The notes beneath the pieces are model-generated. The model was given only the letters and a program-made list of their open reading frames with translations, did no database searches and was not told the origin of the DNA. From assembly GCA_021802825.1 (NCBI GenBank), contig JAJZRG010000003.1, positions 22,643 to 86,642 on the forward strand: a stretch of DNA of 64,000 bases, written 5' to 3'. A program made the translations under genes and the position numbers. Below, one piece after another: positions 7,834 to 62,535 of this stretch. Origin of the DNA: Chloroflexota bacterium (GTDB taxonomy: Bacteria; Chloroflexota; Limnocylindria; Limnocylindrales; CSP1-4). The number at the start of each line of letters is the position of its first letter. The stretch's first letter is position 1.

Positions 7834-7975
7834 CGGCCCAGCCTATCGCGTGTCGCGCACGGGCTGCCGGCCGCGCCGCTGTCGGCCGAGCGTCAATCAG
7901 ACGGCCCCGGGGCATCGCGCCACCGAGGCCGTCGGGCTGGACGTGAGAAACGCAGGGCCGCGGAGACCCCGCGGG

Positions 7976-9403
7976 CTACAGCGCCTTGACGGCCGCCACC
8001 AGCTCGGCCAGGCCGGCCTTCGCGTCGGCGAACAGCATCCCGGTCTTGGGGTTCGTGTACAGCTCGTTGTCGATGCCCGCGTAGCCGCGGCCCATCGAGC
8101 GCTTCATGACGATGATGTTCTTGGCGTGGTCAACGTCGAGGATCGGCATCCCCGACACGGGCGAGCCAGGCCGGCGTGCTGCGGGGTTCGTCACGTCGTT
8201 GGCGCCCACGACGAGCGCCACGTCGCAGCGGTCGAACTCGGGGTTGATGTCGTCCATCTCGCGCAGCTGCGGGTAGGGGACGTTGGCCTCCGCCAGCAGG
8301 ACGTTCATGTGCCCGGGCATCCGGCCGGCCACCGGGTGGATCGCGTACTTCACATCCACGCCGCGGTGCTCCAGCACCTCGGCCAGCTCGCGGACCCCGT
8401 GCTGGGCCTGGGCCACGGCCAGGCCGTACCCGGGCACGATGATCACCGAGGAGGCGTAGGCGAGCTGGATTGCCGCGTCGTCCATCGACACCTCATGCAC
8501 CGAGCCGCCCGGGCCCGTCGCAGCGCCGGCCACCGCATCGCCGCCGCCGAACCCGCCGAGCATGATGTTGAGGATCGAACGGTTCATGGCGTCGGCCATG
8601 AGCTTGGTGAGGATGGCGCCAGATGCACCGACCAGGGCGCCGGCGATGATCAGGACCGGGTTGTTGAGGACGAAGCCGGCCATGGCGACCGCGGTGCCGG
8701 TGAACGAGTTGAGCAGCGAGATGACGACCGGCATGTCTGCGCCGCCGATCGGCAGCGCCATCGTGACCCCGAACACCAGGGCGGCGGCCAGGATCGCGAC
8801 CATGACCGCAATCTGGTAGTTGCCCAGGAACAGGTAGGCCGCGCCGGCCACCGCGACCGCCGCCAGCAGCAGCGTGACGATCTGCCCGCCCGGGATGGCC
8901 ACGGGCCGCGACGGGGTGATCTTGAGGCCCATCAGCTTGCCGGACGCGACGAGCGAGCCGGTGAAGGTGACGGAGCCGATCGCGATGTCGAGGACGGTGG
9001 CGACGTTCTCCTGGAGCCCCGGCACCGTACCCGCGTGGCGGAGGTACTCCTCGATGGCGATGAGTGCCGCCGCGCCGCCGCCCACAGCGTTAAACAGCGA
9101 CACCAGCTGGGGCATCGCGGTCATCTTGACGGTCCGGGCGGAGTAGAAGCCGTAGCCCCCGCCCACCGCGATACCCGCGAGGACGATGACCCAGCCGATG
9201 GGATTGAACGAGCCGGCCGCCGGCGTGAGCAGCAGGTAGACCGCGGTCGCGGCGATAGCGATCGCCATGCCCCCGGCCGAGACCAGGTTCCCGTTGCGCG
9301 CCGTCGCGGGCGAGTTCATCCGCGACAGGCCGATGACGAAGGCGACGGCGCCCACCAGCCAGGCGAGGCGGACGAAAGCGTCGAGCGGCGTGAGGTTGAT
9401 CAC
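7976..9403 (-). CDS. pntB: NAD(P) transhydrogenase subunit beta
   Basis: Multi-TM N-terminal half plus the C-terminal NADP(H) domain (VIIVPGYGLAVAQAQH...VKYAIHPVAGRMPGHMNVLLAEANVPY...ALVVGANDVTNPAA). GTG start at 9403, 2 nt after the pntAB stop. The upstream part of the track ORF (to 9748) overlaps pntAB and was rejected. Confidence 0.9.
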   Translation of the reverse strand: MINLTPLDAFVRLAWLVGAVAFVIGLSRMNSPATARNGNLVSAGGMAIAIAATAVYLLLTPAAGSFNPIGWVIVLAGIAVGGGYGFYSARTVKMTAMPQLVSLFNAVGGGAAALIAIEEYLRHAGTVPGLQENVATVLDIAIGSVTFTGSLVASGKLMGLKITPSRPVAIPGGQIVTLLLAAVAVAGAAYLFLGNYQIAVMVAILAAALVFGVTMALPIGGADMPVVISLLNSFTGTAVAMAGFVLNNPVLIIAGALVGASGAILTKLMADAMNRSILNIMLGGFGGGDAVAGAATGPGGSVHEVSMDDAAIQLAYASSVIIVPGYGLAVAQAQHGVRELAEVLEHRGVDVKYAIHPVAGRMPGHMNVLLAEANVPYPQLREMDDINPEFDRCDVALVVGANDVTNPAARRPGSPVSGMPILDVDHAKNIIVMKRSMGRGYAGIDNELYTNPKTGMLFADAKAGLAELVAAVKAL

Positions 9404-9405
9404 GG

Positions 9406-9741
9406 TCAGCGCTCCGCCCTGTCGGCCTTGGGCGCCGCGGGCTTGCGCTTGAACATCTGGAGCATGCGGTCGGTGACCACGTAGCCGCCCACGACGTTGA
9501 GCGTGGCGAACGCGACTGCCAGGAACGACACGACGTACGAGACGGGGTTGTCCGCGGCGACCGCGATGATCATGGCGCCCACGAGCACGATGCCGTGGAT
9601 CGAGTTGGCGCCCGACATCAGGGGTGTGTGCAGCGTGGCCGGGACCTTGGAGATGACCGCCACGCCGCACATGATCGCGAGCACGAAGATCGTGAACGCG
9701 AGGTCGATGGGCATGCTCGTGGTCGCCGGGTCGGCGTTCAT
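9406..9741 (-). CDS. pntAB: NAD(P) transhydrogenase subunit alpha part 2 (membrane)
   Basis: 111 aa with three to four TM helices. Motif HTPLMSGANSIHGIVLVGA is typical of alpha-2. Overlaps the pntAA stop by 4 nt. Confidence 0.85.
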   Translation of the reverse strand: MNADPATTSMPIDLAFTIFVLAIMCGVAVISKVPATLHTPLMSGANSIHGIVLVGAMIIAVAADNPVSYVVSFLAVAFATLNVVGGYVVTDRMLQMFKRKPAAPKADRAER

Positions 9742-10904
9742 GCAGCACCTCCAGCGGGGACGAGGAGCTTGGCGACGGCCTCGGAGGTGACCTTGCCGCC
9801 GTGGGTGATGACCGTGGCCCGCGTCACCTCCTCCTCCAAATCGAGGGCGAGCGCGCCGCCGCTGACCATGTTGAGCAGCAGGGCCGAGATGTTCCGCGCG
9901 TAGAACTGCGAGGACGAGGCGGGCATCGACGCCGGCAGATTCTCCGGCGCCACGATCGTGACGCCGTTCTCGGTGACGACGGTCTCGCCGGCCCTGGAGA
10001 GCTCGCAGTTGCCGCCCAGGGCCGACGCCGCCATGTCCACGATCACCGAGCCCGGCTTCATGCTCCCGACCGCGGCGGCCGTGACGAGCAGCGGCGGCTT
10101 GCGGCCCGGGACCTGGGCGGTGGTGATGACGATGTCCTGATTGCCGATCACCTCGTTGAGCTCGGCCTGCTGGGCCGCCTGCTCCCCGGGCGTCAGTGCC
10201 CGGGCGTAACCCCCGGCGCCCGTCGCATCGATGGCCGTCTTGAGTCGCACGAACTTCGCGCCCAGGCTCTCGGCCTGCTCGGCGGTCTCGGGGCGGACGT
10301 CGTACGCCGACACCACGGCGCCGAGGCGGCGCGCGGTGCCGATCGCCTGGAGCCCCGCCACGCCGATGCCCAGCACCAGCACGTTGGCCGGCTTCGCGGT
10401 GCCTGCCGCCGTGGTCAGGAGCGGGAAGTAGCGCCCGTACGTGTTGGCGGCGATCAGAACGGCCTTGTAGCCGCCGACGTTCGCCTGGGACGAGAGCGCG
10501 TCCATCGTCTGGGCCCGCGAGAGCGTGCGCGGGATCGCATCCAGACTCACGGCGGTCACGCCGGCATCGGCGAGCGTCTGCATGAGCGACGGGTCGAGCA
10601 GGGGCGCCAGCAGGCCGATGACGACCTGGCCGCTCCGCAGCCTCGAGACCTCGGCCCCGGCGGGCTTCTGGACGCGGAGCACCACGTCGCTCTGGGCATA
10701 GAGCTCGTCGGTCGCCACGACCCGCGCCCCGGCGTTCGCAAACGCCTCGTCGGGGATCATGGCGCCGGCACCGGCGCCGGCCTCGACGAGGATCTCAAGC
10801 CCGGCAGCTGTGAGCTTGCCGAGCGCCTCGGGCACCAGGGCGACGCGCCGCTCTCCGGCTGCCGTCTCCCTGGCGACGCCGACCTTCATGGCATCACCGT
10901 CCAA
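9738..10904 (-). CDS. pntAA: NAD(P) transhydrogenase subunit alpha part 1 (AlaDH-like dI domain)
   Basis: MKVGVARETAAGERRVALVPE start. Rossmann motif VLVLGIGVAGLQAIGTARRLGAVVSAYDVR. Alternative start at the internal Met, 10889. Confidence 0.9.
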   Translation of the reverse strand: MDGDAMKVGVARETAAGERRVALVPEALGKLTAAGLEILVEAGAGAGAMIPDEAFANAGARVVATDELYAQSDVVLRVQKPAGAEVSRLRSGQVVIGLLAPLLDPSLMQTLADAGVTAVSLDAIPRTLSRAQTMDALSSQANVGGYKAVLIAANTYGRYFPLLTTAAGTAKPANVLVLGIGVAGLQAIGTARRLGAVVSAYDVRPETAEQAESLGAKFVRLKTAIDATGAGGYARALTPGEQAAQQAELNEVIGNQDIVITTAQVPGRKPPLLVTAAAVGSMKPGSVIVDMAASALGGNCELSRAGETVVTENGVTIVAPENLPASMPASSSQFYARNISALLLNMVSGGALALDLEEEVTRATVITHGGKVTSEAVAKLLVPAGGAA

Positions 10905-29924: not shown

Positions 29925-31466
<1,542 letters not shown>

Positions 31467-50702: not shown

Positions 50703-52475
50703 TCAGCGGTCTTCGAGCATCGCCGGCCGGACTCGGCCCCACGCGTCCCAGACCTCGCCGAGCCCGGCGGCTCGCGGTCCGAGCGCAGCTTCGACGCGGG
50801 TGAGCGAGAGATCGTCAGCTTGGTCCGCGAGCCACAGGTCTGCGCGCACCACGGCGCCGTCGAACAGCGCCGCCAGCGCAGACTCGCCGGGCCAGGCGCG
50901 GACGCGCATCCGGTCCAGCCCCGCGTACCCGACCGCCAGCGACAGGTCGCGCGGGGAGGGGACCCGATCATCGGCGAACCCGCCCATGCCGTACCGGAAG
51001 CCCAGCGCCGAGAGCGCCTGTACGATCTCGCGCTGCTCATCGTTCGAGAACAGGCGCCAGAACGCGTTCTCCTCGTCCACGTCGATGTAGCCGTCCTCGA
51101 TCGCGCGAGCCGCGATGGCGTCGACCAGCTTGGCGATCTGGACGTGCCAGGCGGCGGTCGCGCTGGCGTCGCCCCGGGCCAGGGTCGCGACGAGCTGCTC
51201 GCGGGCCGGGGTGTCACCGCGCAGGATCCGCAGGATGACGGGCAGCTTGTCCCGGCCGGCGGGGACGGGGGGGCGCGTGTCGTATGCGGGTTCGGCGCCA
51301 TCTGGCCACGCGGCCCCGTCCTCGGTCGGCTCCTCGGGCGCCGGCGGCGCGGCCTGCTGGCGCTCCTCGCACGCAGCCAGCGACTCGCGCGCGGCCCGGC
51401 ACTCGGTCTCGGAGCGCTCGGCGGTGATGCGGGCGGCGTTCGCCTCGAGCTCGAGCTTCTCGAGGGCGGCCGCCTGGACGCGCAGCTCGTCCGTCCCCGC
51501 CCGGACGCGACGCGCCGCGTCCCGGGCGGCGGTGTTCGCCACGCTCACGGCGGTGAGCCACGCGCGAGCGGCCTCCTCCGCGTCGTCGGTCGTGTGGGCA
51601 GCCGCGTGAGAGGTCTGGAACTGGACGTGAAGGCGCTCCTTCTCGGCGGCCAGCCGGCGCGGGTCAGCGAGCGAGCCGGCCTCCTCGACGCGAGCCTGGA
51701 GGTCCGAGTGTGCCCGCTGGCCCTCCCGCAGCCGATCGGCAAGGGCGCGGGAGGCCTCTCGTGCTGTGTCGGCCTCGACGCAGGCGCTTGATGACTTGAC
51801 GCGCTCCTGCGCGCACGGATCGACTGTGGTCGCGTCGGGAGCTGGTTGCGACGGCGAGGTCCTGGGCTTGCCGCGGGTCGGGCCGCGGGCGAGGACCGGG
51901 ATCGCGACGAGCTCGGCGGCCAGCGCGGGCCGGTGCTCCGTGGCCGGCGGCCGGGCCCGGACGGAGACGTCGGCGCGGAGCGGGCGGATGTCGACGTGGG
52001 AGGGCAGTACAGGCGCGATCGCCTCACCGCCGTCGGCCGCGACCCGTCGCTCGGCGACGGCAACCGCCACGGCGCCCGTCACCGACGCAAGGGTCTCGCC
52101 CGGCGTGTGGCCGTCGCGCACGATCGGGATACCGACCGCACGGCCGGAAAGGCCAGGTCCAGAGAGAACGCGGGTTCGAATGTCGGCGCGCCAGGACGCC
52201 GAGTCCGGCGACGGGACCAGCCCGACCGCGACGGCGTCGGCGAAATCCAGCTGCGCGTCTTCGTCCGGCGAGCCGGGTGCCGGCTGGGCGACACGGGGCG
52301 GCCGGGGCGAACCGACCACCAGCCGCTCGCGCGGTGCCATCGCGTTCGGCGTGACGGTCACTCGGACCACCGGCCGGAAGGGAGAGCGTGGCCGGGCCAC
52401 GACGAGGAGCATGGCTCCCGCGGTGATGCCCACGAGGAGGCCGAGGGCCAAGAAGCCGATCTCGGACGGGCTCAC
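50703..52475 (-). CDS. Membrane-anchored coiled-coil protein with C-terminal globular domain, unknown function
   Basis: GTG at 52475 with GGGAG 5 nt upstream. N-terminal TM GFLALGLLVGITAGAMLLVV. A central A/E/R-rich coiled coil of about 200 aa. The track ORF upstream extension was rejected. Confidence 0.45.
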   Translation of the reverse strand: MSPSEIGFLALGLLVGITAGAMLLVVARPRSPFRPVVRVTVTPNAMAPRERLVVGSPRPPRVAQPAPGSPDEDAQLDFADAVAVGLVPSPDSASWRADIRTRVLSGPGLSGRAVGIPIVRDGHTPGETLASVTGAVAVAVAERRVAADGGEAIAPVLPSHVDIRPLRADVSVRARPPATEHRPALAAELVAIPVLARGPTRGKPRTSPSQPAPDATTVDPCAQERVKSSSACVEADTAREASRALADRLREGQRAHSDLQARVEEAGSLADPRRLAAEKERLHVQFQTSHAAAHTTDDAEEAARAWLTAVSVANTAARDAARRVRAGTDELRVQAAALEKLELEANAARITAERSETECRAARESLAACEERQQAAPPAPEEPTEDGAAWPDGAEPAYDTRPPVPAGRDKLPVILRILRGDTPAREQLVATLARGDASATAAWHVQIAKLVDAIAARAIEDGYIDVDEENAFWRLFSNDEQREIVQALSALGFRYGMGGFADDRVPSPRDLSLAVGYAGLDRMRVRAWPGESALAALFDGAVVRADLWLADQADDLSLTRVEAALGPRAAGLGEVWDAWGRVRPAMLEDR

Positions 52476-52780
52476 AGGTCTCCCTTGCGGGCGGGCGGTG
52501 GATCCGCGCAGCCTGTCGGGCAGCGTAGCTGCGCCACGCGCGCGCGTCAACCGCAAGTCGCGCGGGTTTGTGAACGGAGTCTCGCAGGTCCCGACGGTCC
52601 CGTCTCGCCCGCCCAGCGTGCTGTCCCTCGAACGAGGCGGCCCCCAGCGGCGCCGATCGCTGGGCGGCCCCGTGGCCGTGCGTGACTGCCCCCTGGGGCG
52701 GCCAGTGCCAACCCGCCGCGCGGTTCCGCGCCGCCAGGGGATGCCGGACGGCGGCGTCGCAACGTCGCCTCGGGGGCGGG

Positions 52781-52835
52781 GCATTGCAGAAGGGCTGCGA
52801 GGCGGAGTCGCGGCCAGTCAGCCGCTGTGCAATGC
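52781..52835 (+). promoter_or_regulatory. Extended imperfect hairpin/inverted repeat upstream of the Rieske/cyt b operon
   Basis: GCATTGCAG...GGCTG...CAGCC...CTGTGCAATGC, about 100 nt upstream of the 52931 start. Confidence 0.3.
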
Positions 52836-52930
52836 ACCCAAGGGCTTGCTACTCTCTCGCGGTCGGCGGCGTTCCTCGCTGAGGTGTTCCGCCATGCAGC
52901 AATACCCCAGCCGAGAGGCCTGACCGCTTC

Positions 52931-54763
52931 GTGACCCTCGATCTCGCGCAGGACTTCCTTGTCCAGCCCGTGGACGCGTCCTGGCTCCAGTGCAACATCG
53001 AGTGCCAGGAGGCCTGCCCCGTCGGCACGAACTGCCGGGGCTACCTCAACCTCGCTGCCGAAGGGCGGTTCGAGGAGGGGTACCTGCTCGCGCGCGAGCC
53101 CAATCCGGTTGCCGCGATGTGCTCGTACGTGTGCTCGGCGCCGTGCGAGCGCGCGTGCCGGCGCGGGGACATCGACCGGCCGCTCGCCATCCGGGCGATG
53201 AAGCGGTTCCTGGTCGAGTGGCACGAGGCCTCGGGCATCCCGGACGTCATGCCCGAGATCGCGCCCCGCGAGGAGCGGATCGCGGTCATCGGCGCCGGCC
53301 CGTCCGGCCTGGCGGTCGCCCGGGAGCTCGCGGTCAGGGGCTATCAGATCACGGTTTACGACAGCCTCCCGTACGGGGGCGGCACCCTGCTCATGGGTGT
53401 GCCCGCGTTCCGCCTGCCGCGTGAGGCGATCGAGATGGACGTCCGGCTCGTCGAGCGCCTGGGCGTGACCTTCGTGTTCGACACCCAGATCGGCGTGGAC
53501 GTCCAGTTCGAGGACCTCCAGCGCGACTTCGACGCGATCGCCATCTGCGCGGGCGCGATGAACCCGGTCTACCTCGACATCCCCGGGGCCGACCTCGAGG
53601 GCGTGCTCTACGGCGTGGACTTCATGAAGAAGGCGAACCTCGGCCAGGAGGTCGCGGTGGGCCACAACGTCGTGGTCGTCGGCGGCGGCTACACGGCCAT
53701 GGACTGCGCGCGCACGAGTCTGCGCTTCGGCGCCGAGAACGTCACCATCGCCTACCGGCGCACCCGCTCGGAGCTCGTCGTGGACGAGGAGGAGCTGGGC
53801 GAGACCGAGCTCGAGGGCGTCCGGATGGACTTCCTGGTGAGCCCGATCGAGCTGCTGGGCGAGGACGGCAAGCTGACCGCGATCCGGTTCATCCGCAACA
53901 AGCTGGGCGAGCCCGACGCCTCGGGCCGTCGCTCGCCGGTGCCGATCCCGGGCTCCGAGTTCACGCTTCCCTGTGACACGATCATCCCAGCCGTCTCGCA
54001 GGCTGCGGACCTCTCGTTCCTGCCGGTCGAATCCTCGTTCGAGGTCAACCGGGGCCGGATCAAGGTGGACCCGGCGACCTACGCCACCAACGTCCGCGGC
54101 GTGTTCGCCTGCGGCGACTTCGTGACCGGCCCCACGACACTGATCGAGTCCGCCGGGCATGGCAAGAAGGCCGCATACGCCATCGACCGCTACCTCGACG
54201 GCCGCACCGACGTCACCGTCACCCCCAACGTCAAGATCACCAGCTCGTGGCGCCACGACATGCCAGAGCTGTACGACGTCCTGCCGCGCCAGCACATCCC
54301 GACGCTGGAGCCGGCGGCGCGCATGCCCAGCACGGATCCGGCGGTCAACTTTACGACTCCGGTGGAGCTGGGCTACGACGCGACGGCGGCCGTGGCCGAG
54401 TCCACGCGCTGCCTCATGTGCAACTACAACATCTGGTTCGACCCGTTCCGGTGCGTACTGTGCGGCGCCTGCGCAGACGTCTGCCCCGAGGGCGTCATCC
54501 ACATGGTGGACGTGAACCAGCTCAAGACCGAGGGCCTGCTGCCCGAAATCGAGGAGGCCTACGGCTGGTCGCAGGGGGCGGCCATGATCCTCGACGAGGA
54601 GCGGTGCATCCGCTGCGCCCTGTGCGTGAAGCGGTGCCCCTTCGATGCGATCACGATGGAGCGGTTCGAGCTCCAGGAGATCTCGAGCGACGGCCGACTC
54701 TACAAGGAGTCCTACCGAGACGCGCAACTCGCCGGGACGGCCGGCGTGGCAGGAGGAGCGTAG
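52931..54763 (+). CDS. GltD/NfnB/SudA-like NAD(P)H-dependent flavo-iron-sulfur oxidoreductase with C-terminal 2x[4Fe-4S] ferredoxin domain
   Basis: N-terminal Cys clusters (CNIECQEACPVGTNC; CSYVCSAPCERAC). Two dinucleotide folds (IAVIGAGPSGLAVA, VVVVGGGYTAMDCA). C-terminal CLMC...CVLCGACADVCP and CIRCALCVKRCP. Confidence 0.8.
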   Translation: MTLDLAQDFLVQPVDASWLQCNIECQEACPVGTNCRGYLNLAAEGRFEEGYLLAREPNPVAAMCSYVCSAPCERACRRGDIDRPLAIRAMKRFLVEWHEASGIPDVMPEIAPREERIAVIGAGPSGLAVARELAVRGYQITVYDSLPYGGGTLLMGVPAFRLPREAIEMDVRLVERLGVTFVFDTQIGVDVQFEDLQRDFDAIAICAGAMNPVYLDIPGADLEGVLYGVDFMKKANLGQEVAVGHNVVVVGGGYTAMDCARTSLRFGAENVTIAYRRTRSELVVDEEELGETELEGVRMDFLVSPIELLGEDGKLTAIRFIRNKLGEPDASGRRSPVPIPGSEFTLPCDTIIPAVSQAADLSFLPVESSFEVNRGRIKVDPATYATNVRGVFACGDFVTGPTTLIESAGHGKKAAYAIDRYLDGRTDVTVTPNVKITSSWRHDMPELYDVLPRQHIPTLEPAARMPSTDPAVNFTTPVELGYDATAAVAESTRCLMCNYNIWFDPFRCVLCGACADVCPEGVIHMVDVNQLKTEGLLPEIEEAYGWSQGAAMILDEERCIRCALCVKRCPFDAITMERFELQEISSDGRLYKESYRDAQLAGTAGVAGGA

Positions 54764-55492
54764 GTGAGCTTCCTGGAGCGGGTTGACCAGTCCATCCGGC
54801 GAAGCCCGGTGTGGCGGTCCATCTTCCGCAACCCGTACCCGAACGACGAGCGCTCGCGCGCGTACGCGGTCATGAACAACGTGTTCCTGCACCTGCACCC
54901 GGTGCGGGTCCGGCAGCACGCGGTCAAGTTCGCCTACACGTTCTGCCTCGGCGGCCTCAGCTTCTTCCTGTTCCTCGTGCTGACGGTCACCGGCGTGTAC
55001 CTGATGTTCTTCTACATCCCCTCGGACACGCAGGCGTACTCGAACATCCTGGACATCCAGTCGCGAGTGGTGTTCGGCCTGCTGACCCGCAACGTCCACC
55101 GGTGGGCCGCCCACCTGATGGTGTTCTTCGTGTTCCTGCACATGATGCGGGTCTTCTACCACGGGGCCTACAAGCCGCCGCGCGAGTTCAACTGGGTCGT
55201 CGGCGTGGTGCTCCTGTTCCTCACGATCATGCTCTCGTTCACGGGCTACCTCCTCCCGTGGGACCAGATCGCCTACTGGGCCATCACCATCGGCACCAAC
55301 ATGGCCGGCTACGCGCCGCTGTTCAACACCCCGTCCAAGCTGCTGCTTCTGGGCGGCATCGAGGTGGGCCAGAACACGCTGCTCCGGTTCTACGTGCTCC
55401 ACATCATGGTCTTCCCCCTTGTTGCCGCGATCTTCCTGGCCGTGCACTTCTGGCGGATCAGGAAAGACGGCGGCATCTCCGGCCCACTCTGA
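54764..55492 (+). CDS. Cytochrome b6-type subunit (N-terminal four-helix half of cytochrome b)
   Basis: H-x13-H in helix B ([15 protein letters not shown]). H-x14-H in helix D ([16 protein letters not shown]). FCLGG Cys at the position of the b6 heme-ci Cys. YLLPWDQ. C-terminal [10 protein letters not shown]. The GTG directly follows the upstream TAG, with AGGAGGAG 5 nt upstream. Confidence 0.9.
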
Positions 55493-55507
55493 GCCGAGGC
55501 TGACGAC

Positions 55508-56122
55508 ATGACCGAGACCAAGCCCACCGAGACGCGCACCGTCCAGCCGGTTGACCCGGCGCGGCGCACGGAGATCGACAAGCAGCGCGTCCCGATGTCG
55601 GCGCGCCCGTACCGCCTGCTCGCGCTGGTCAAGCAGGACGCGGTCGTCCGGGTCCAGAAGGAGCCGGACGACACCGTCATGACGTGGCCACACCTGCTGG
55701 CCATCGAGTTCATGGCGGCGGCCGTGATGAGCGTGTTCCTGCTGCTCATGGGCCTGTTCATGAACGCCCCGCTCGAGGACCTCGCCAACGGCAACATCAC
55801 GCCGGCCGTGGCGAAGGCCCCGTGGTACTTCCTGGGCCTTCAGGAGCTGCTCGCCTACTTCCACCCGACCGTCGCCGGCGTGCTCGTGCCGACGTTCGTG
55901 CTGGTGGGCGCGGCCCTGATCCCGTTCGTGGACCGGGCCAACATCTTGGCCACGCGCCCGAGCGACCGCAAGACCGCCGTGGTCCTGTTCTCGCTGTTCT
56001 GCGCGCTGGGCCTGTTCGTCACCTTCGTCGGGATCTTCTTCCGGGGTCCCGGCTACGCGTTCGTCATCCCGTATCTGAACTTCTTCTCGATCGGCACGCC
56101 GGGTCTGCACTTCGCACTGTGA
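55508..56122 (+). CDS. Cytochrome b C-terminal half (subunit IV-like)
   Basis: Three to four TM helices. KAPWYFLGLQELL (PEWY-type Qo motif variant). Confidence 0.85.
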   Translation: MTETKPTETRTVQPVDPARRTEIDKQRVPMSARPYRLLALVKQDAVVRVQKEPDDTVMTWPHLLAIEFMAAAVMSVFLLLMGLFMNAPLEDLANGNITPAVAKAPWYFLGLQELLAYFHPTVAGVLVPTFVLVGAALIPFVDRANILATRPSDRKTAVVLFSLFCALGLFVTFVGIFFRGPGYAFVIPYLNFFSIGTPGLHFAL

Positions 56123-56141
56123 CCCGAGGGACAGCGGAATC

Positions 56142-56816
56142 ATGAGCAACTACTCGGTCGAGCCTGCGAACAAGCCGCAAGCCCTGACGAAGGAAGCCAT
56201 CAAGGCCCTCCGCCATGAGCAGGTTCAGGGCGTCTCCCGCCGCGAGCTCCTGCGGGGGTCGCTGGCCGCCGCCATGGGCCTGTGGCTGGTCGAGGTCACG
56301 GCCGGCACGGTCGGGTTCCTGTGGCCAAACCTGCAGGGTAAGTTCGGCGGCCTCGTCAAGGTTGGCGACTTCGCCTCGATCAAGGCCGCCAACTCCACCC
56401 TGCCGATCGACCAGGGATTCCCGGCCTACGTCTCGAGCGCGAAGGCCTTCGTCGTCCTCTACGACCCGGCGGAGCAGCGCTTCCTGCCCGGCGAGGACCC
56501 CGTCGGCGACGGCAGGGCGGTCAACGTCCGCGCGCTGTACCAGCGCTGCCCGCACCTCGGCTGCAAGCCCAACCCCTGCGTCAAGAACTTCTGGCTCGAG
56601 TGCCCCTGCCACGGGTCGCGCTACGACCGGCTGGGCATCAAGGCCTTGGGCCCGCAGTACGGGCCGGCGCCGCGGAGCATGGACCGCTTCGCGACCATCG
56701 TCGACGATGCCGGGGTGCTTACGGTCAACACGGGCAAGATCACGCTGGGCCCCCTGCCGATCGCGGTTGGCCAGCCCGGGATCATCCCGCCGCGCACCCC
56801 AACCGGCTGCATCTAG
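56142..56816 (+). CDS. Rieske [2Fe-2S] protein
   Basis: Twin-arginine signal SRRELLRGS. Cluster boxes CPHLGC and CPCHGS. Confidence 0.9.
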   Translation: MSNYSVEPANKPQALTKEAIKALRHEQVQGVSRRELLRGSLAAAMGLWLVEVTAGTVGFLWPNLQGKFGGLVKVGDFASIKAANSTLPIDQGFPAYVSSAKAFVVLYDPAEQRFLPGEDPVGDGRAVNVRALYQRCPHLGCKPNPCVKNFWLECPCHGSRYDRLGIKALGPQYGPAPRSMDRFATIVDDAGVLTVNTGKITLGPLPIAVGQPGIIPPRTPTGCI

Positions 56817-56859
56817 CCCTACGCCGCCCACAAGCGTCCGCTGCCCACCGAGGAGACCG

Positions 56860-57975
56860 ATGACCGACCAGCCCGGCCGCCAGCACGAGGAGCGCCTGCC
56901 CGCGCCGCGGCCGTCGTCCGCGCCCGTGCCGGCCTCGCGCTTCTCGGCGCCACCGTCGGCCCACCGCAACGACCTCACGCCCGCGCGCGCGGCCGGGATC
57001 GTCCGCCAGTCGGGCAACGCACGCTGGGTGGGCTTCCTGGCGGTGACGATCGTCGCCCTGTTCGTCATCGGCTACTACTTCTACGAGCTGGGCGTGCCGG
57101 GCATCCCGGGCAGTGCCCGTCTCGACTCGGCGGTCAAAGCCCAGCAGGTCACCAACGTGGAGCGCGGCTACAACGTCTTCCAGGCCAACTGCGCACAGTG
57201 CCACGGGGTCAACGGCCAGGGCGGCAAGGGCCCGGTCCTCAACGACCAGTCCAAGCTGTTCGCGCACCTCAACGAGGACTACCTGCGCAACATCCTCCAG
57301 GTGGGCGGCCGCTACGCCTGCGGCAACCCCAACTCGATCATGCCCGTGTGGTCGAACACCGGCAACCCGCCGGGCCCGCTCAACTACATGCAGATCAACG
57401 ACGTCATCGCGTTCATCCGCGCGTCCAAGGCCGACACCTACGTGAAGCTCGACCCCAACCTGTCCGAGCCGGTCGTGGACCCGGTCACCAAGCAGGTAGA
57501 GACCTTCAACGGCTGGGTGGACCCCAACTACTCGCCGGCCCCGGGCGCGACACCGTTCCCCGCCTGCTGGACGGATGCGTTCAAGAACCCGGCCTCGGCC
57601 GCCCCAGCCCCGGGCGCCTCCGCAGCGCCGGGCGCCTCCGGGTCGGCCCCTGTCCCCTCCGGCTCGTCACCCGCCCCGTCGGGCGCTCCGACCGGCACCA
57701 CGATCGACATCACCGCGCTCAACATCGCGTTCGACAAGACGGACATCACGGCCCCAGCCGGGGCGCCGTTCACGATCCACTTCGACAACCAGGACCAGGG
57801 CATCCAGCACAACGTCGAGATCAAGGACGGAGCCGGGAACCAGGTGTTGGCAGGCTCGCTGATCACGGGGCCCGCGGTGATCGACTACGCCGTGCCAGCC
57901 CTCCCGGCGGGCAGCTACAGCTTCCTGTGCATCGTCCACCCCAACATGGCCGGCACCATCAAGGCGGGGAGCTGA
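56860..57975 (+). CDS. Membrane-anchored monoheme cytochrome c fused to a cupredoxin domain
   Basis: ATG at 56860 with GAGGAG upstream. TM WVGFLAVTIVALFVIGYYF. Heme motif CAQCH with a distal Met (IMPVW). Ala/Pro/Ser linker. Cupredoxin ending YSFLCIVHPNMAGTI. Confidence 0.8.
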   Translation: MTDQPGRQHEERLPAPRPSSAPVPASRFSAPPSAHRNDLTPARAAGIVRQSGNARWVGFLAVTIVALFVIGYYFYELGVPGIPGSARLDSAVKAQQVTNVERGYNVFQANCAQCHGVNGQGGKGPVLNDQSKLFAHLNEDYLRNILQVGGRYACGNPNSIMPVWSNTGNPPGPLNYMQINDVIAFIRASKADTYVKLDPNLSEPVVDPVTKQVETFNGWVDPNYSPAPGATPFPACWTDAFKNPASAAPAPGASAAPGASGSAPVPSGSSPAPSGAPTGTTIDITALNIAFDKTDITAPAGAPFTIHFDNQDQGIQHNVEIKDGAGNQVLAGSLITGPAVIDYAVPALPAGSYSFLCIVHPNMAGTIKAGS

Positions 57976-57978
57976 GCG

Positions 57979-59427
57979 ATGGCCACGACTGCACTCCCCG
58001 GGGCCGGCGCCTCGCGCCGCCGCGCGTTCTTCGGGCTGTTCGATGCCGACGGCTGGGCCTGGGCCGGCGCCAAGGCGGTCTTCTGGTTCGTCGTCATCAT
58101 CACGATGCTCGGCTACATCCCGGACCGCGCGTACTACTTCACGGTTGGCAAGACGGTCGAGGTCTGGCCCCTCGCCCCGTTCCTCGAGTGGTCGCCCGTC
58201 AACCTGTGTCCCGCGGAGAACCAGACCTTGCCGTGCCCGGCGCCGGCCGGTGCCGTCCTGCCCTGGCAGCCGAACCCGCCCCAGGTCCAGCTGCCGCAGG
58301 CCCGCACTGACGGTGCCGCCGCGGTGATCGGCACGACGTACCTGTACGTCGGCGGCACCGACGGCACCGCCCCCAAGGCGGACGTCTTCATCTCGCACCC
58401 GGTTCAGAACGGCCTCCTGGGCCTCTGGAACCAGGGCCCGGCACTGCCGGAGGCCCGCTCCAGCGCGGCCTCGGTCGTCATGGGCAACACGCTCTATGTC
58501 ATCGGCGGCTACGGCCCGGACGGCAAGCCGACGAACACCACGTACAGCCTCACGGTCAACCCCGACGGCGCGCTGGGCCAGTGGGCCACCGAGGCCAACC
58601 TGGCCCTGCCGGCGCCGCGCGCCGGCGCCGCTGCCGTGGCCCTCTCTGACGGGATCGCCGTTCTGGGTGGCACCGACGGGACGGCCGCGCAGCGCGATGT
58701 GTGGAAGTCGCAGACGGACGCATCGGGCAAGCTCCAGGCCTGGGTGGCGCAGAGCCCGCTCGCGCTCCCCAGCGCCGGCGCGTTCCCCGCGCACGTGGGC
58801 GACGTCATCTACCTCATCGGCGGCGTGGACGCCACGGGCGCCGCCGTTGCCACGGTCCAGCTCGGCAAGGTCGGCGGGCCTAACGCCACGGCCAAGGACC
58901 CCAACGTCCTCCAGGCATGGCTCTACAGCGCGCAGACCAACCTGCCCGGGCCGCGAAGCCACCTCGCCGGCTTCGTCTCCAACGGCACCATCTACGTCGT
59001 CGGTGGCTCGGACGGGACGCGTCCGCGCTCCGAGATGTTGTGGGCGATCCCGGATCCCAATGGCAACATCCCGGCCTGGAACCACATGCCCCAGACCGAT
59101 CTCGGTCTGGGCGTCCAGGGTGCCGCCGGTGTGACGTCAGGGGCGAATGCGTTCCTGATCGGCGGCCAGACGGCAAGCGGCATCACCACTGGCGCGGCGC
59201 GGACGTACCTCGCCCCGCAGCAGCCGTTCTTCCAGCTCGGCCTGCTGGGCGCGACGCTGCCGGCCCTCAAGCTCGACGGAGAGATCGGTCAGCAGATCGG
59301 CTACCTGAACGCGGCCGGCGTGGGGACGGTAAACTTCGTGATCCTGCTCGCGATCGGCTGGGGCTTCGCCCACAAGGAGAAGGTCCGGGCCATGGTCTCG
59401 CGTCGCCGGCGGAACGCCGAGCCGTAG
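57979..59427 (+). CDS. Kelch-repeat beta-propeller protein with N- and C-terminal TM anchors
   Basis: Starts 4 nt after the upstream stop. TM AVFWFVVIITMLGYI. About six Kelch-like blades (LYVGGTDG, LYVIGGYG, IAVLGGTDG, IYLIGGVD, IYVVGGSDG, AFLIGGQT). C-terminal TM VNFVILLAIGWGFA. Confidence 0.75.
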   Translation: MATTALPGAGASRRRAFFGLFDADGWAWAGAKAVFWFVVIITMLGYIPDRAYYFTVGKTVEVWPLAPFLEWSPVNLCPAENQTLPCPAPAGAVLPWQPNPPQVQLPQARTDGAAAVIGTTYLYVGGTDGTAPKADVFISHPVQNGLLGLWNQGPALPEARSSAASVVMGNTLYVIGGYGPDGKPTNTTYSLTVNPDGALGQWATEANLALPAPRAGAAAVALSDGIAVLGGTDGTAAQRDVWKSQTDASGKLQAWVAQSPLALPSAGAFPAHVGDVIYLIGGVDATGAAVATVQLGKVGGPNATAKDPNVLQAWLYSAQTNLPGPRSHLAGFVSNGTIYVVGGSDGTRPRSEMLWAIPDPNGNIPAWNHMPQTDLGLGVQGAAGVTSGANAFLIGGQTASGITTGAARTYLAPQQPFFQLGLLGATLPALKLDGEIGQQIGYLNAAGVGTVNFVILLAIGWGFAHKEKVRAMVSRRRRNAEP

Positions 59428-59454
59428 GGCCGCCCTCCACACGCCCCGCACCTA

Positions 59455-59486
59455 AGAACGGCCGCCGGTCACCCGTCGGCCGTTCT
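59455..59486. terminator. Bidirectional terminator-like hairpin
   Basis: AGAACGGCCG-12 nt-CGGCCGTTCT, a perfect 10-bp stem between the convergent Kelch and rhodanese genes. Confidence 0.5.
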
Positions 59487-59515
59487 GCGCTTCGTCGGGC
59501 TGAGCCGGGGCCTCG

Positions 59516-59887
59516 TTAGTTGGCGGGGAGCTGGCCCTCGCCCGGCTCCAGCGGACCACGCTTGACCGGCAGCCCCAGGCGCTCCCAGCCGTCGATCCCG
59601 CCGGCCACGCTCCCGACATCCTCCCAGCCGTTCTGGAGCAGGTACGCGGTGGCGCCCGTGGAGCGGCTGCCGGAGGCGCAGATCAGCATGACCGGGCGGT
59701 CCCTGGGGATCTCGTCCAGGCGCACGCCGAGCTGTGACATCGGGATGAACAGGCAGCCCTCGACACGCACGGCCATGAACTCGTCGCGCTCTCGGATGTC
59801 CACGAGGAGAGCGGGGCGGACGGGGTCGCGGCGTCGGATATCGGCATAGAGCGGGTCGAGAGCGGGGATCGCCTGGGGTCGGTTCAT
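59516..59887 (-). CDS. Single-domain rhodanese sulfurtransferase
   Basis: Active-site loop ICASGSRS. C-terminal GGIDGWE. Confidence 0.85.
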   Translation of the reverse strand: MNRPQAIPALDPLYADIRRRDPVRPALLVDIRERDEFMAVRVEGCLFIPMSQLGVRLDEIPRDRPVMLICASGSRSTGATAYLLQNGWEDVGSVAGGIDGWERLGLPVKRGPLEPGEGQLPAN

Positions 59888-60013
59888 GGTGGGCGAGGGT
59901 CCTCAGCGAGATGGGCAGGGGGCGCCGCGGGGCGGGGCCGAGTGTACCGGCCGCGGCCGGGGGGCCTGCCGGGCCAGCCCGCGAGGCGTGTCTCCGATGG
60001 TCGTGGCAATGGG

Positions 60014-60448
60014 TCAAGTCAGCTCGTCGATCGGGCGACGCCCGGCGAAGCCCTCGTCGCTGGCGTGCCAGGCCACTACCGAGGCTTCACCCAGCCGCCA
60101 GCACAGCCAGATGGGCTGGCCGTCCGCCTCGGCCGGGAAGTCGATCAGGCCAGTTGCGATGTCGCGCAGCGCCAAGTCGCGCTCGTCCAGCCAGGCGGCG
60201 TCTGCCTGCATCTGGTCGATGACGCCGCGAAGGCGCAGGCGCGTGAGCTCCCGCGCTGCCCTCGCGTCGAGGCCGGTCTCGCGCTGGCGGCCCGACTCGG
60301 CTGTCTCGCGCTGCGGTACACCTTCGTGCCGTCGATACGCATCACGGAGGGCGATGACCTCCTCTCGAAGATCTTGCAGTCGCTGGACGACGACGGTGAT
60401 CTCGGGCAGGATGGTGTCGGCGTCTCGGAGTGAGTAGATGCGGGACAC
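60014..60448 (-). CDS. DUF2203-like protein
   Basis: The GTG start gives VSRIYSLRDADTILPEITVVVQRLQDL. C-terminal LIDFPAEADGQPIWLCWRLGE pattern. Confidence 0.55.
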   Translation of the reverse strand: MSRIYSLRDADTILPEITVVVQRLQDLREEVIALRDAYRRHEGVPQRETAESGRQRETGLDARAARELTRLRLRGVIDQMQADAAWLDERDLALRDIATGLIDFPAEADGQPIWLCWRLGEASVVAWHASDEGFAGRRPIDELT

Positions 60449-60552: not shown

Positions 60553-62535
60553 ATGGACGCCGCCCCGCTTGACGGCGACCCTCACTCCATGAAGGAGGAG
60601 CCCCCGCCCGTGTCGGTTCTGCGCGCCGTCCCCGCCGCCCCGCCCATTCCCGATCGCGCCGGTGCACCGGTCTGGCGCCCGAGACGTCGCCTCCCCGCTC
60701 TGGTGGGACTCCTGGCCACCATGCTGGTCCTGATGTCCTTCACGAGCTACGCGTTCCCGCGTGTCGCCGACGCCTCGTCCACGCTCGCGCCCCTGTGCGC
60801 CGGCGTCAACCTCCGCACCAGCGCCTCGGCCACGGCGACGCTCAAGGTCCGGCTGGGCACGAGCGCGCGCGTCACGGCGGTGGCAACCGTCAGCGGCGGC
60901 CGCTGGAGCACGTACTGCGCGGGCGTGTCGAAGTCGGGCTCGACGTGGTTCCGCATCAGCGCGATCGGCGGCAAGTCGGTCAAGTCGCTCTACGGGGTCT
61001 CGTACCTCTACGGCGCCACGAGCCTGTTCAAGACCGTTGCGACCGCAACCACGCTGTACCCGGCGGTGGTGACCTCGTCCACGCTCGCGCCCCTGTGCGC
61101 CGGCGTCAACCTCCGCACCAGCGCCTCGGCCACGGCGACGCTCAAGGTCCGGCTGGGCACGAGCGCGCGCGTCACGGCGGTGGCAACCGTCAGCGGCGGC
61201 CGCTGGAGCACGTACTGCGCGGGCGTGTCGAAGTCGGGCTCGACGTGGTTCCGCATCAGCGCGATCGGCGGCAAGTCGGTCAAGTCGCTCTACGGGGTCT
61301 CGTACCTCTACGGCGCCACGAGCCTGTTCAAGACCGTGATTGTGCCCACCACGCTCTACGCGGCCTGCAGCAGCACCTTGCTCCGGGCCAGCCCATCGAC
61401 GACGGCCTCCATCAAGGCCAGCCTGCCGCAGGGTGCGACGCTGGTCGTGTACGGAACCGTAACGGGTTCATCGTGGTCGGTCGCTTGCCCAACGAGCACC
61501 AGTGGCACGGCCTGGTACCGAGTGACCAGCGTGAACGGCAAGACAGTCTCCTCTTTGTACGGCGTCAGCTACGTCTACGTTGCCACGGGCACGATGACTT
61601 CCACGATGCCTGCGGTCGCCCCGTCGCCGACCCCGGTCCCGAGTGTCACGGCCGCGCCCAGCATCGCCGCGTCCACCGATCCCAGCGCGTCTCCGACTGC
61701 GACCCCGAAACCCACCCCGACGCCAACCCCGACGATGACGCCCATCCCCATCGGCACGCCGCCGCCGGTGCAGGCGAATGCCTGCTTCCCGCCGCCCTCG
61801 CCGACGCCCACGCCGGTCCCGACGCCCACTCCGACGCCCAATCCCAGCGCGTCGCCGACGCCGACCCCCGTACCCACGCCCGCGCCCACAGCCACACCCT
61901 GGAACTGCGTCGCCGGCGTTGACGTGAGCAACTGGCAGGGGACCATCGACTGGGGCAAGGTGGCCGGTTCGGGTGTCAAGTTCGCCTTCGTCAAGGCCAC
62001 CGAGGGAGGCAACTACACCGACCCCTACTACGTCACGAACCGCTTCAATGCGAACGCGAACGGGATCGTGATCGGTGCCTACGACTTCGCGCAGCCCAGC
62101 ACGACTGCTGGCCAGGCTGAGGCCGAGGCCGACTACTTCGTCAACGTGGCCCAGCCGCGGTCCGGCGACTTCGCGCCGGTGCTCGATCTCGAGAGAACGA
62201 ACGGCCTGTCGGTTGCGAACCTGCAGCTGTGGGTCAAGAAGTGGATGTACCGCGTATACGAGCGGACGGGCCAACGGGCGTCGATCTACGTCTCGCCGTC
62301 GTTCTGGAGCACCTATATGGGCAACACGACCTGGTTCGACCTGAACGGGTTCCGGACGCTGTGGATCGCGCACTGGACATCGGGCACGTCGCCGACGGTG
62401 CCCGCCACGAACTGGGGCGGTTACACTTGGACCTTCTGGCAGTGGACGAGCTCGGGCACCGTGCCGGGGATCAGTGGCCGCGTGGACATGGACCGCTTCC
62501 ACTACGCAGACCTGACACCGTACCGAATCCCGTAG
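60553..62535 (+). CDS. Secreted SH3b x3 + Pro/Thr linker + GH25 muramidase (lysozyme)
   Basis: AAGGAG before the ATG. TM/signal LVGLLATMLVLMSF. Two identical and one diverged SH3b-like repeats. PTPTP linker. GH25 core GVDVSNWQGTIDWGKVAGSGVKFAFVKATEG...DFAPVLDLE...WTFWQWTS. Confidence 0.8.
   Translation: MDAAPLDGDPHSMKEEPPPVSVLRAVPAAPPIPDRAGAPVWRPRRRLPALVGLLATMLVLMSFTSYAFPRVADASSTLAPLCAGVNLRTSASATATLKVRLGTSARVTAVATVSGGRWSTYCAGVSKSGSTWFRISAIGGKSVKSLYGVSYLYGATSLFKTVATATTLYPAVVTSSTLAPLCAGVNLRTSASATATLKVRLGTSARVTAVATVSGGRWSTYCAGVSKSGSTWFRISAIGGKSVKSLYGVSYLYGATSLFKTVIVPTTLYAACSSTLLRASPSTTASIKASLPQGATLVVYGTVTGSSWSVACPTSTSGTAWYRVTSVNGKTVSSLYGVSYVYVATGTMTSTMPAVAPSPTPVPSVTAAPSIAASTDPSASPTATPKPTPTPTPTMTPIPIGTPPPVQANACFPPPSPTPTPVPTPTPTPNPSASPTPTPVPTPAPTATPWNCVAGVDVSNWQGTIDWGKVAGSGVKFAFVKATEGGNYTDPYYVTNRFNANANGIVIGAYDFAQPSTTAGQAEAEADYFVNVAQPRSGDFAPVLDLERTNGLSVANLQLWVKKWMYRVYERTGQRASIYVSPSFWSTYMGNTTWFDLNGFRTLWIAHWTSGTSPTVPATNWGGYTWTFWQWTSSGTVPGISGRVDMDRFHYADLTPYRIP
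60773..61337 (+). repeat. Perfect 265-bp direct repeat with 300-bp period inside the muramidase gene
   Basis: 60773..61037 is base-for-base identical to 61073..61337. The 35-bp linkers between the copies differ. Confidence 0.95.

Follow-up and report, generated by a model that had tools for sequence, protein, structure and literature searches.

Two described groups of Rieske/cytochrome b complexes stand closest to the genes reported here. The complexes Kuste4569-4574 and Kustd1480-1485 of the anammox bacterium Kuenenia stuttgartiensis have a b6-like cytochrome b and a five-helix subunit IV (PMC12954380), together with multiheme cytochromes and an NAD(P) oxidoreductase that carries four iron-sulfur (FeS) clusters and flavin adenine dinucleotide (FAD), and all of their subunits are reported to co-migrate (PMC12954380). 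Their Rieske proteins have potentials of +303 and +335 mV, high values that, it is argued, would make heme bL sufficiently low in potential to reduce NAD(P)+, and an AlphaFold3 prediction places an extra heme b, bound by His43 of Kuste4571, at the dimer interface (PMC12954380). The bifurcation of quinol electrons to NAD(P)H in anammox bacteria was proposed by Kartal et al. in 2013 and, as passages of PMC12954380 relate, is a proposal still. The second group, the "APWY clade" of Kao and Hunte (2014), has a split cytochrome b, the motif APWY at the quinol oxidation (Qo) site and, in part, the CxGG motif of a heme cn site; passages of PMC4122944 report it from Chloroflexi, Nitrospirales, Planctomycetes, deep Actinobacteria, Deltaproteobacteria and deep Firmicutes, and argue that APWY marks reverse-working complexes, citing the p-cresol system of Geobacter metallireducens. 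Here we describe a six-gene operon at positions 52931-59427 of a 64,000-nucleotide stretch of contig JAJZRG010000003.1 (hereafter the window), from an uncultured soil Chloroflexota bacterium of the class Limnocylindria. The six genes are best explained as encoding one membrane complex, a b6-type, "APWY-clade" Rieske/cytochrome b complex with a GltD-like flavoprotein as its probable partner. Judged by its predicted subunits, this complex is a variant of the anammox-type design discussed so far only for anammox bacteria, distinguished by a cytochrome c-cupredoxin fusion, a Kelch protein, a three-helix subunit IV and a soil Chloroflexota host. Literature on GltD with Rieske/cytochrome b6, or on Limnocylindria respiration, yielded no description of the Limnocylindria operon.

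The features of the locus are given below, each gene being an open reading frame (ORF) whose identity is taken from Pfam:

52931-54763, plus strand: gene for the GltD/NfnB-like flavoprotein (610 aa)
54410-54667, plus strand: C-terminal dicluster ferredoxin-like domain of the flavoprotein (about aa 494-579)
54751-54758, plus strand: Shine-Dalgarno-like AGGAGGAG within the 3' end of the flavoprotein gene, read from the sequence
54764-55492, plus strand: gene for the cytochrome b6-type cytochrome b (242 aa)
55508-56122, plus strand: gene for the subunit IV-like protein (204 aa)
56142-56816, plus strand: gene for the Rieske protein (224 aa)
56860-57975, plus strand: gene for the cytochrome c-cupredoxin fusion protein (371 aa, ATG start)
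57979-59427, plus strand: gene for the Kelch protein (482 aa)

These six genes form one real operon. The initial annotation, made from the letters of the DNA, had described six same-strand genes with gaps of 0-43 nt and a flavoprotein stop codon directly followed by the next start; the ORFs lie where it put them, with gaps of 0, 15, 19, 43 and 3 nt in order, and the Pfam profile search confirmed every one of its domain calls. The TAG of the flavoprotein gene (54761-54763) abuts the GTG of the cytochrome b6 gene (54764), and positions 54751-54766 read AGGAGGAG-CG-TAG-GTG, so that the putative ribosome-binding sequence lies inside the upstream gene. Minus-strand genes flank the block on either side, which therefore stands as a discrete unit. 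The G+C content at third codon positions (GC3) of the six ORFs is 0.92-0.96, in a window of 72% GC. A scan of 52500-60100 for consensus promoters and terminators found no sites (0.3 and 2.5 expected by chance), a result that says little because the host genome is that of a Chloroflexota with 72% GC.

The flavoprotein is recognised by Pfam as Fer4_20, Pyr_redox_2 and two Fer4 domains, in keeping with the extra [4Fe-4S] motifs noticed at the outset on a GltD/NfnB-like protein. Its N-terminal Fer4_20 domain contains Cys21/25/29/35 and Cys64/68/72/76 and is followed by an FAD Rossmann fold (GAGPSG) and an NAD(P)H Rossmann fold (GGGYTA ... AYRR), of which the AYRR element, from what is known of GltD and NfnB, presumably binds NADPH. 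A Cys494-x2-Cys497 pair then precedes the C-terminal 2[4Fe-4S] ferredoxin-like domain (C508..C518, C559..C569). Residues 18-430 align with NfnB, GltD, NfnA and StnC chains in the PDB at E-values of 1e-63 to 1e-109, the matches including NfnA 9n5u (9e-109), StnC-type 8oh5, NfnB 4ylf/5jca and GltD 2vdc/6s6s. The window protein differs from the NfnB, GltD and Stn flavoproteins in its added C-terminal dicluster domain and in its place within a cytochrome b operon. Identity as an Nfn transhydrogenase or glutamate synthase was considered and set aside: no NfnA or GltB gene lies alongside, no formate dehydrogenase-like partner gene was found near the flavoprotein gene either, and the flavoprotein falls far short of every cut-off set by the NCBIfam equivalog models of glutamate synthase, AegA, YgfK and families of that kind. 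Hydropathy analysis detected no transmembrane helix in the flavoprotein. Every one of the 26 residues examined in its cofactor motifs, namely 18 Cys, both Rossmann motifs and the YRR region, is kept in 81 of 81 flavoproteins, and the tail formed by residues 580-610 is near-invariant; we know of no catalytic role for these last 30 residues. We propose that the C-terminal ferredoxin-like domain is a docking and electron-transfer module facing cytochrome b.

Cytochrome b6 (Pfam PF00033 Cytochrome_B, E 1e-44) matches spinach b6 (6rqf) at E 1.6e-51 and bears the b6 hallmarks read initially from its translation. The heme b ligand pairs H112-x13-H126 and H213-x14-H228 align with His86/100 and His187/202 of b6 and are invariant in 67 of 67 sequences, and Cys61 (TFCLGG) aligns with spinach Cys35 (FYCLGG), which makes it the predicted covalent attachment site of a heme cn. 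R233 and K234 are invariant and the IRKDGG motif is conserved. Subunit IV (PF00032 Cytochrom_B_C) has three transmembrane helices predicted from hydropathy, where the Kuenenia subunit has five. The PWYF motif first noted in it is present as KAPWYF, with the Qo motif A104-P-W-Y107 lying in KAPWYFLGLQELL, and a second motif reads WPH62LLAIE67; APWY, His62 and Glu67 are invariant in 68 of 68 sequences and are shared with five other lineages.

Upstream of these motifs, cytochrome b6 has an N-terminal extension of 25-30 residues that carries an invariant His43, and a conserved histidine in this extension is a probable further likeness to Kuenenia. In the Nitrospirota homologue of the protein the distance from this histidine to the arginine of the C-terminal RKDG motif is 204 residues, equal to that from His43 to Arg247 in Kuste4571; the window protein is without a 14-residue loop insertion. 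We infer, by way of the Nitrospirota spacing and not of a direct alignment, that His43 of the window and His43 of Kuste4571 are the same site. The extension was also tried as a signature of flavoprotein-containing complexes and rejected: nearly all of 80 relatives sampled (below) have the motif, those with only a ferredoxin included, so that it is not specific to the flavoprotein type.

The Rieske protein (PF00355) has the SRRELL twin-arginine signal/anchor assigned to it at first, with the cluster boxes CPHLGC and CPCHGSRY. Its cluster ligands are invariant in 62 of 62 sequences, as are Ser159 and Tyr161 of CPCHGSRY, hydrogen-bond donors typical of high-potential clusters. Its best PDB matches are the Kuenenia entries 9rk4 (1.2e-10) and 9rk3 (2.5e-9), the Rieske protein of b6f reaching only 2.6e-6, and across the cluster-binding region it is 38-41% identical to the Kuenenia proteins. 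Relative to the Rieske proteins of five other lineages, that of the window has an insertion of ~18 residues before box I (the LPGEDPVGDGRAVNV region) and four more residues following box II; an invariant cysteine, Cys146, is also added, and the C-terminus is longer, rich in Pro and ends in Cys.

The fusion protein joins a monoheme class I cytochrome c (PF00034 Cytochrom_C; CAQCH, Met161), anchored by one transmembrane helix, through a Pro/Ala/Ser-rich linker to a cupredoxin domain (PF13473 Cupredoxin_1) with a type-1 copper site (His317, C357-x2-H360-x2-M363), and so agrees with the anchored CxxCH cytochrome-blue copper fusion first described. Its PDB matches comprise auracyanin A 2aan, blue copper protein 6kol (Roseiflexus-type), amicyanin and actinobacterial QcrC. 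By analogy with actinobacterial QcrC, in which two hemes are fused, the copper domain fits a role as an integral carrier towards an oxidase. The Kelch protein, matched by Pfam Kelch families and by Kelch structures in the PDB, is doubly anchored as originally read, with one transmembrane helix at each end; because both termini are also positively charged, the propeller is predicted to lie on the outer, positive (P) side of the membrane. Its gene is syntenic in every Limnocylindria locus long enough to show it, and searches with the protein gave no matches beyond Limnocylindria-like loci. The Kelch protein as a conserved subunit of the wider family was rejected, since it is unlike the products of the last genes in the Acidobacteriota and Nitrospirota operons described below.

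Set beside Kuenenia, through alignment of its Rieske fragments from the PDB and published descriptions of its other subunits, the locus shows a common plan. Both have a b6-like four-helix cytochrome b with a heme cn site and a separate subunit IV, a Rieske protein of high-potential type (predicted for the window from Ser159 and Tyr161), and a gene in the same cluster for a cytoplasmic FAD/NAD(P) subunit with an FeS chain. The anammox analogy suggested by the initial annotation is thus sustained: the Kuenenia Rieske proteins Kuste4569 and Kustd1480 are the best matches among solved structures, and the published subunit make-up corresponds. The differences lie on the outer side, where Kuenenia has a hexa- or octaheme cytochrome and a protein like hydroxylamine oxidoreductase (HAO) and the window a monoheme cytochrome c-cupredoxin with a single CxxCH, in the added Kelch membrane protein, and in the hosts, Kuenenia being an anaerobic autotroph with an anammoxosome and the window organism a soil Chloroflexota with heterotroph-type genes.

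Other families are more remote, and the view that this is neither a canonical bcc nor a canonical b6f operon holds. A split b6 and subunit IV, the heme cn cysteine and equal heme ligand spacing are shared with b6f and with the b6c complex of Firmicutes; unlike b6f, the operon has no cytochrome f and no PetG/L/M/N genes, and its c-type subunit is a class I cytochrome c, and unlike both it has APWY in place of PEWY, the N-terminal His43 extension and a flavoprotein predicted on the negative (n) side of the membrane. The actinobacterial QcrCAB complex has a long, unsplit QcrB and a diheme QcrC, in contrast to the split cytochrome b and monoheme cytochrome c of the window, and the NCBIfam models for QcrB, QcrC and QcrA score 112, 26 and 30 bits against cut-offs of 500, 200 and 275. 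Cytochrome b6 scores 296 bits with the NCBIfam model for ExtP (cut-off 290). Membership of the Geobacter ExtOPQ (Cbc5) group was rejected: ExtQ reaches 48 bits against 150, ExtO has no match, and the operon encodes no multiheme cytochromes. In Geobacter itself the cluster includes multiheme cytochromes but lacks a flavoprotein (PMC5877670).

Within Limnocylindria the operon is strongly conserved. The best genomic match of the flavoprotein (98% identity) is a complete "Chloroflexia" metagenome-assembled genome (OY969796.1), and the other 79 loci matched are Chloroflexota, many labelled Candidatus Limnocylindrales. None of the sampled Limnocylindria loci departs from the arrangement flavoprotein, b6, subunit IV, Rieske, cytochrome c-Cu, Kelch, with contigs that end early showing the first genes only. 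Calculated over 52-80 Limnocylindria orthologues per protein, invariant columns make up 67% of the flavoprotein, 71% of cytochrome b6, 59% of subunit IV, 42% of the Rieske protein, 18% of the cytochrome c-Cu protein and 17% of the Kelch protein. The cofactor ligands checked, in alignments of 59-81 sequences, are invariant or nearly so, from 58-59 of 59 in the fusion protein, despite its few invariant columns, up to 81 of 81. At 67% against 71%, the flavoprotein, its last 30 residues included, is thus as constrained as the membrane core. Separately from the operon, one locus (L105, 5034-5777) holds an orphan cytochrome b6 paralogue, 88% identical to that of the window, between a ComEC gene and a gene for an AAA_16/TPR/LuxR regulator, with no flavoprotein, subunit IV or Rieske gene within 5-8 kb.

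A first protein search with the flavoprotein returned only relatives of >89% identity, and more distant ones were reached through a library clustered at 50% identity, in which the next relative (P0123) is 49% identical and most others are 36-44% identical. Gene context outside the class was sampled by nine look-ups of flavoprotein relatives and one metagenome scan of 80 loci. Five of the nine relatives are encoded directly upstream of Rieske/cytochrome b genes, namely those from Acidobacteriota ("Ca. Acidoferrum"), Anaerolineae, Nitrospirota, the P0425 group, in which cytochrome b is fused, and Thermincola, in which a periplasmic molybdoenzyme follows. The synteny check proposed initially thus finds the GltD-like gene adjoining cytochrome b throughout Limnocylindria and in five other lineages, although gene order varies among the operons of different lineages. 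All six linked operons encode a cytochrome b whose N-terminal extension contains an invariant His (His43 in the window), and they share the subunit IV motif KAPWYF(L/M)xLQEL and a Glu where b6f has a Phe facing heme cn; the heme cn cysteine is kept only in the window and in Nitrospirota. In a rough neighbour-joining tree the window flavoprotein falls beside the stand-alone proteins P0123 and P0152, on long branches without resolution.

Several of these relatives carry features of their own. P0123, the nearest flavoprotein relative outside Limnocylindria, has the same AITM(D/E)RF tail. In the Thermincola sp. metagenome-assembled genome (L090, 7001-15809), an operon for a GltD-like protein, Rieske protein, cytochrome b, subunit IV and diheme cytochrome c is followed immediately by four genes, for a molybdoenzyme of the type II dimethyl sulfoxide reductase family, an FeS subunit, an EB_dh heme subunit and a NarJ-like chaperone, which suggests a dedicated high-potential terminal reductase for that Rieske/cytochrome b complex. 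At two loci of one clade (L123 and L138) the GltD-like gene lies ~4.3-4.5 kb downstream of the Rieske, cytochrome b and subunit IV genes, an order resembling that of Kustd1480-1485. At three loci (L085, L087 and L091), among them that of P0123, proteins closely similar to the flavoprotein in architecture are encoded apart from any cytochrome b or Rieske gene.

The metagenome scan, made with the cytochrome b alignment, showed a GltD-like gene within the fetched flanks of 18 of the 80 loci, mostly directly adjacent. Fourteen loci with ample flanks have no such gene, and these are the closest relatives of cytochrome b6 outside Limnocylindria (58-67% identity, Cys present). At these loci the gene immediately before that of cytochrome b encodes a strongly conserved 2[4Fe-4S] ferredoxin of ~130-138 aa; the operons, which belong to Acidimicrobiia, continue from an APWY-type cytochrome b6 through subunit IV and the Rieske protein to a cytochrome c. 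Of 41 such loci whose upstream sequence extends for 700 nt or more, 32 have the ferredoxin, and its named homologues are from Acidimicrobiales and Microthrixaceae. Over 83 aa, this ferredoxin and the flavoprotein's C-terminal domain share 36% identity (E 2e-12), the long inter-cluster insert included. The Acidimicrobiia operons agree with the window in gene order from cytochrome b on, in the heme cn Cys, the His43 motif and APWY, and in having an FeS protein gene directly upstream of cytochrome b; they differ in having no FAD/NADPH module, cupredoxin fusion or Kelch gene. As an example, the ferredoxin gene of L124 occupies 7455-7841; it and the copies at 31 other metagenome loci (L109-L170) are mostly 67-84% identical and lie on contigs of 41-72% GC.

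In a rough neighbour-joining tree of cytochrome b, Limnocylindria is sister to the ferredoxin-linked clade, with GltD-linked lineages all around, and nearly every sampled member with readable flanks has a GltD-like or a small ferredoxin gene beside cytochrome b. The common denominator of the family is therefore a predicted n-side FeS module: by these gene neighbourhoods, such a module accompanies the whole cytochrome b family, and the flavin/NADPH part occurs in many lineages, not all. The window cytochrome b clusters with lineages whose subunit IV has APWY (in a tree of the sequences sampled here), and the phyla given for the APWY clade in the relevant passages of that paper match the lineages found here. 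Those passages do not tie the clade to an n-side FeS or flavoprotein partner, in contrast to the members sampled here, nearly all of which have one, and the literature searched gave no description of such a partner as a family-wide trait of this cytochrome b.

We consider it likely, on sequence and context, that the flavoprotein is physically associated with the cytochrome b complex. This is because (i) its stop codon abuts the cytochrome b start, with the Shine-Dalgarno-like sequence inside the upstream gene; (ii) no sampled Limnocylindria locus breaks the gene order; (iii) it is conserved like cytochrome b; (iv) a GltD-like gene adjoins Rieske/cytochrome b genes in five other lineages; (v) Acidimicrobiia place a homologous ferredoxin directly upstream of cytochrome b; (vi) in the cytochrome b tree the ferredoxin-linked clade has GltD-linked lineages on all sides; and (vii) the subunits of the Kuenenia homologues are reported to co-migrate (PMC12954380).

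How electrons would move through such a complex, and in which direction, we infer from this wiring. The reading that we prefer, tentatively and at somewhat less than even probability, is an anammox-type bifurcation of quinol electrons to Cu/heme c and to NADP+, a division between two branches that the initial annotation also considered possible. On the n side the NADPH flavoprotein, with FAD and at least four [4Fe-4S] clusters, would use its C-terminal ferredoxin-like domain to dock; at the outer face of the membrane the Rieske protein would pass electrons to the membrane-anchored heme c, the fused auracyanin-like Cu domain and then presumably a terminal oxidase. Menaquinol, which is typical of the phylum Chloroflexota and is assumed for the window organism, would be oxidised at the Qo site, its first electron rising in potential along the chain formed by the Rieske protein, heme c and Cu. 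The second, low-potential electron would pass via hemes bL and bH, with heme cn and possibly a His43-bound heme, to the FeS chain, FAD and NADP+. The exergonic, Cu/O2-linked outer branch would thus pay for NADPH formation, and n-side quinone reduction, as in a normal Q cycle, may occur on the same wiring when NADPH is not needed.

Bifurcation is preferred because a high-potential-type Rieske protein occurs in a typically menaquinone phylum together with high-potential outer acceptors. The direction towards NADP+ is favoured because the Rieske protein has Ser159 and Tyr161 and its best matches are the Kuenenia Rieske proteins, and because the last carriers of the outer branch, heme c and type-1 Cu, are of high potential, with a periplasmic molybdoenzyme following the equivalent operon in Thermincola; the AYRR motif adds NADPH as the likely nucleotide.

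Several observations weigh on the other side. GltD and NfnB modules usually oxidise NADPH. The closest relatives of cytochrome b6, in Acidimicrobiia, have the ferredoxin and no flavoprotein, and among the flavoprotein's own relatives P0123 (49%, the nearest outside the class), a Nitrospinota protein and P0152 are not linked to cytochrome b. Conservation of the heme cn Cys61, of Glu67 and His62 in subunit IV and of IRKDGG fits a working n-side quinone site. According to passages of PMC4122944, no complex of the APWY clade has been characterised. Finally, the window itself encodes a membrane proton-translocating NAD(P) transhydrogenase, PntAB, a route to NADPH driven by the proton motive force, so that a special NADPH-making route is not obviously needed:

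9738-10904, minus strand: PntA, transhydrogenase subunit (AlaDh_PNT domains)
7976-9748, minus strand: PntB, transhydrogenase subunit

The main rival is an opposite direction of flow, which we regard as possible though doubtful. NADPH would be oxidised at FAD, the FeS chain would deliver its electrons to heme cn/bH and the n-side quinone, and the quinol would be re-oxidised at Qo, making the complex an NADPH:cupredoxin (cytochrome c) oxidoreductase with a captive Q cycle, a bacterial counterpart of the ferredoxin and ferredoxin-NADP+ reductase (FNR) that feed heme cn of b6f in cyclic electron flow. The best PDB and NCBIfam matches of the flavoprotein are NADPH-oxidising modules (GltD, NfnB and the dihydropyrimidine dehydrogenase type), Cys61, Glu67/His62 and R233/K234 are all invariant, the ferredoxin-only n-side subunit of the Acidimicrobiia relatives fits an electron-input port, and the host is a presumed aerobic heterotroph in which PntAB is already present. 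Against this, the heme cn Cys is absent in four of the six GltD-linked lineages compared, so that heme cn is not needed for coupling; the scheme has no need of a high-potential-type Rieske protein; and the authors of the anammox study deem the passage of electrons from NAD(P)H to quinone by such a route wasteful (PMC12954380).

That the six genes are merely co-transcribed, the flavoprotein being a separate soluble NADPH:acceptor oxidoreductase and the other five genes encoding an ordinary menaquinol:cytochrome c/cupredoxin reductase, we judge unlikely. It would suit the absence of a transmembrane helix from the flavoprotein and the existence of homologues encoded alone (P0123, P0280 and P0152). 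It accords poorly with an adjacency kept in at least six lineages though gene order is shuffled, with the C-terminal domain being a separate gene beside cytochrome b in Acidimicrobiia, with the invariant C-terminal tail and very high overall conservation of the flavoprotein, and with the reported co-migration of the Kuenenia subunits (PMC12954380).

Least probable of all is a complex running in reverse by confurcation, in which one electron from the high-potential Cu/heme c chain and one from NADPH would meet at Qo and reduce menaquinone. The initial annotation too named reverse operation as an alternative, and the argument in passages of PMC4122944 that APWY marks reverse operation, as in the G. 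metallireducens p-cresol system, speaks for it, but Limnocylindria are not known as lithotrophs using high-potential donors, the window has heterotroph-type genes (a sugar ABC transporter, an FGGY kinase and citrate synthase), and the fusion of a cupredoxin to the cytochrome c of the complex itself suggests an outgoing connection to an oxidase.

Several other genes of the window were recorded. The 5' neighbour of the operon, divergent from it and unrelated, is a 693-aa ORF on the minus strand (50703-52784; GC3 0.87, good coding statistics) with one hydrophobic segment, a long Ala/Glu/Arg-rich region and no Pfam or other family match. On the 3' side lie a rhodanese gene and a DUF2203 gene, both on the minus strand. 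At 60553-62535 on the plus strand is a gene for a 660-aa secreted protein with a C-terminal GH25 muramidase domain, an SH3-like region and, at its N-terminal end, two identical tandem segments of ~95 aa, and at 29925-31466 on the minus strand lies a gene of the MttB family (trimethylamine methyltransferase-like).

Since 2013 it has been asked whether a Rieske/cytochrome b complex can send its low-potential electron to NAD(P)+ and not to quinone, a question approached so far with isolated Rieske domains and AlphaFold models. The operon described here offers a simpler, six-gene wiring, with one heme c and one Cu against 6-16 hemes and an HAO-like enzyme. The module is found in at least five lineages besides Limnocylindria, a class represented here by many soil metagenome-assembled genomes, and Acidimicrobiia have a ferredoxin-only version. 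It thereby provides a wider choice of organisms and a natural "domain-deletion" series for probing the n-side module, whose predicted family-wide occurrence raises the value of the finding. More broadly, quinol bifurcation onto NADP+ might be a widespread module built on an ancestral n-side FeS port of APWY-type b6 complexes, driven in Limnocylindria by an O2-linked cytochrome c/copper wire, an idea that we put forward with the balance of probability against it. If it were true, Limnocylindria would make NADPH directly from the quinone pool; and should the module work at all, whichever way its electrons flow, current models of how these common soil bacteria respire and obtain NADPH would need revising.

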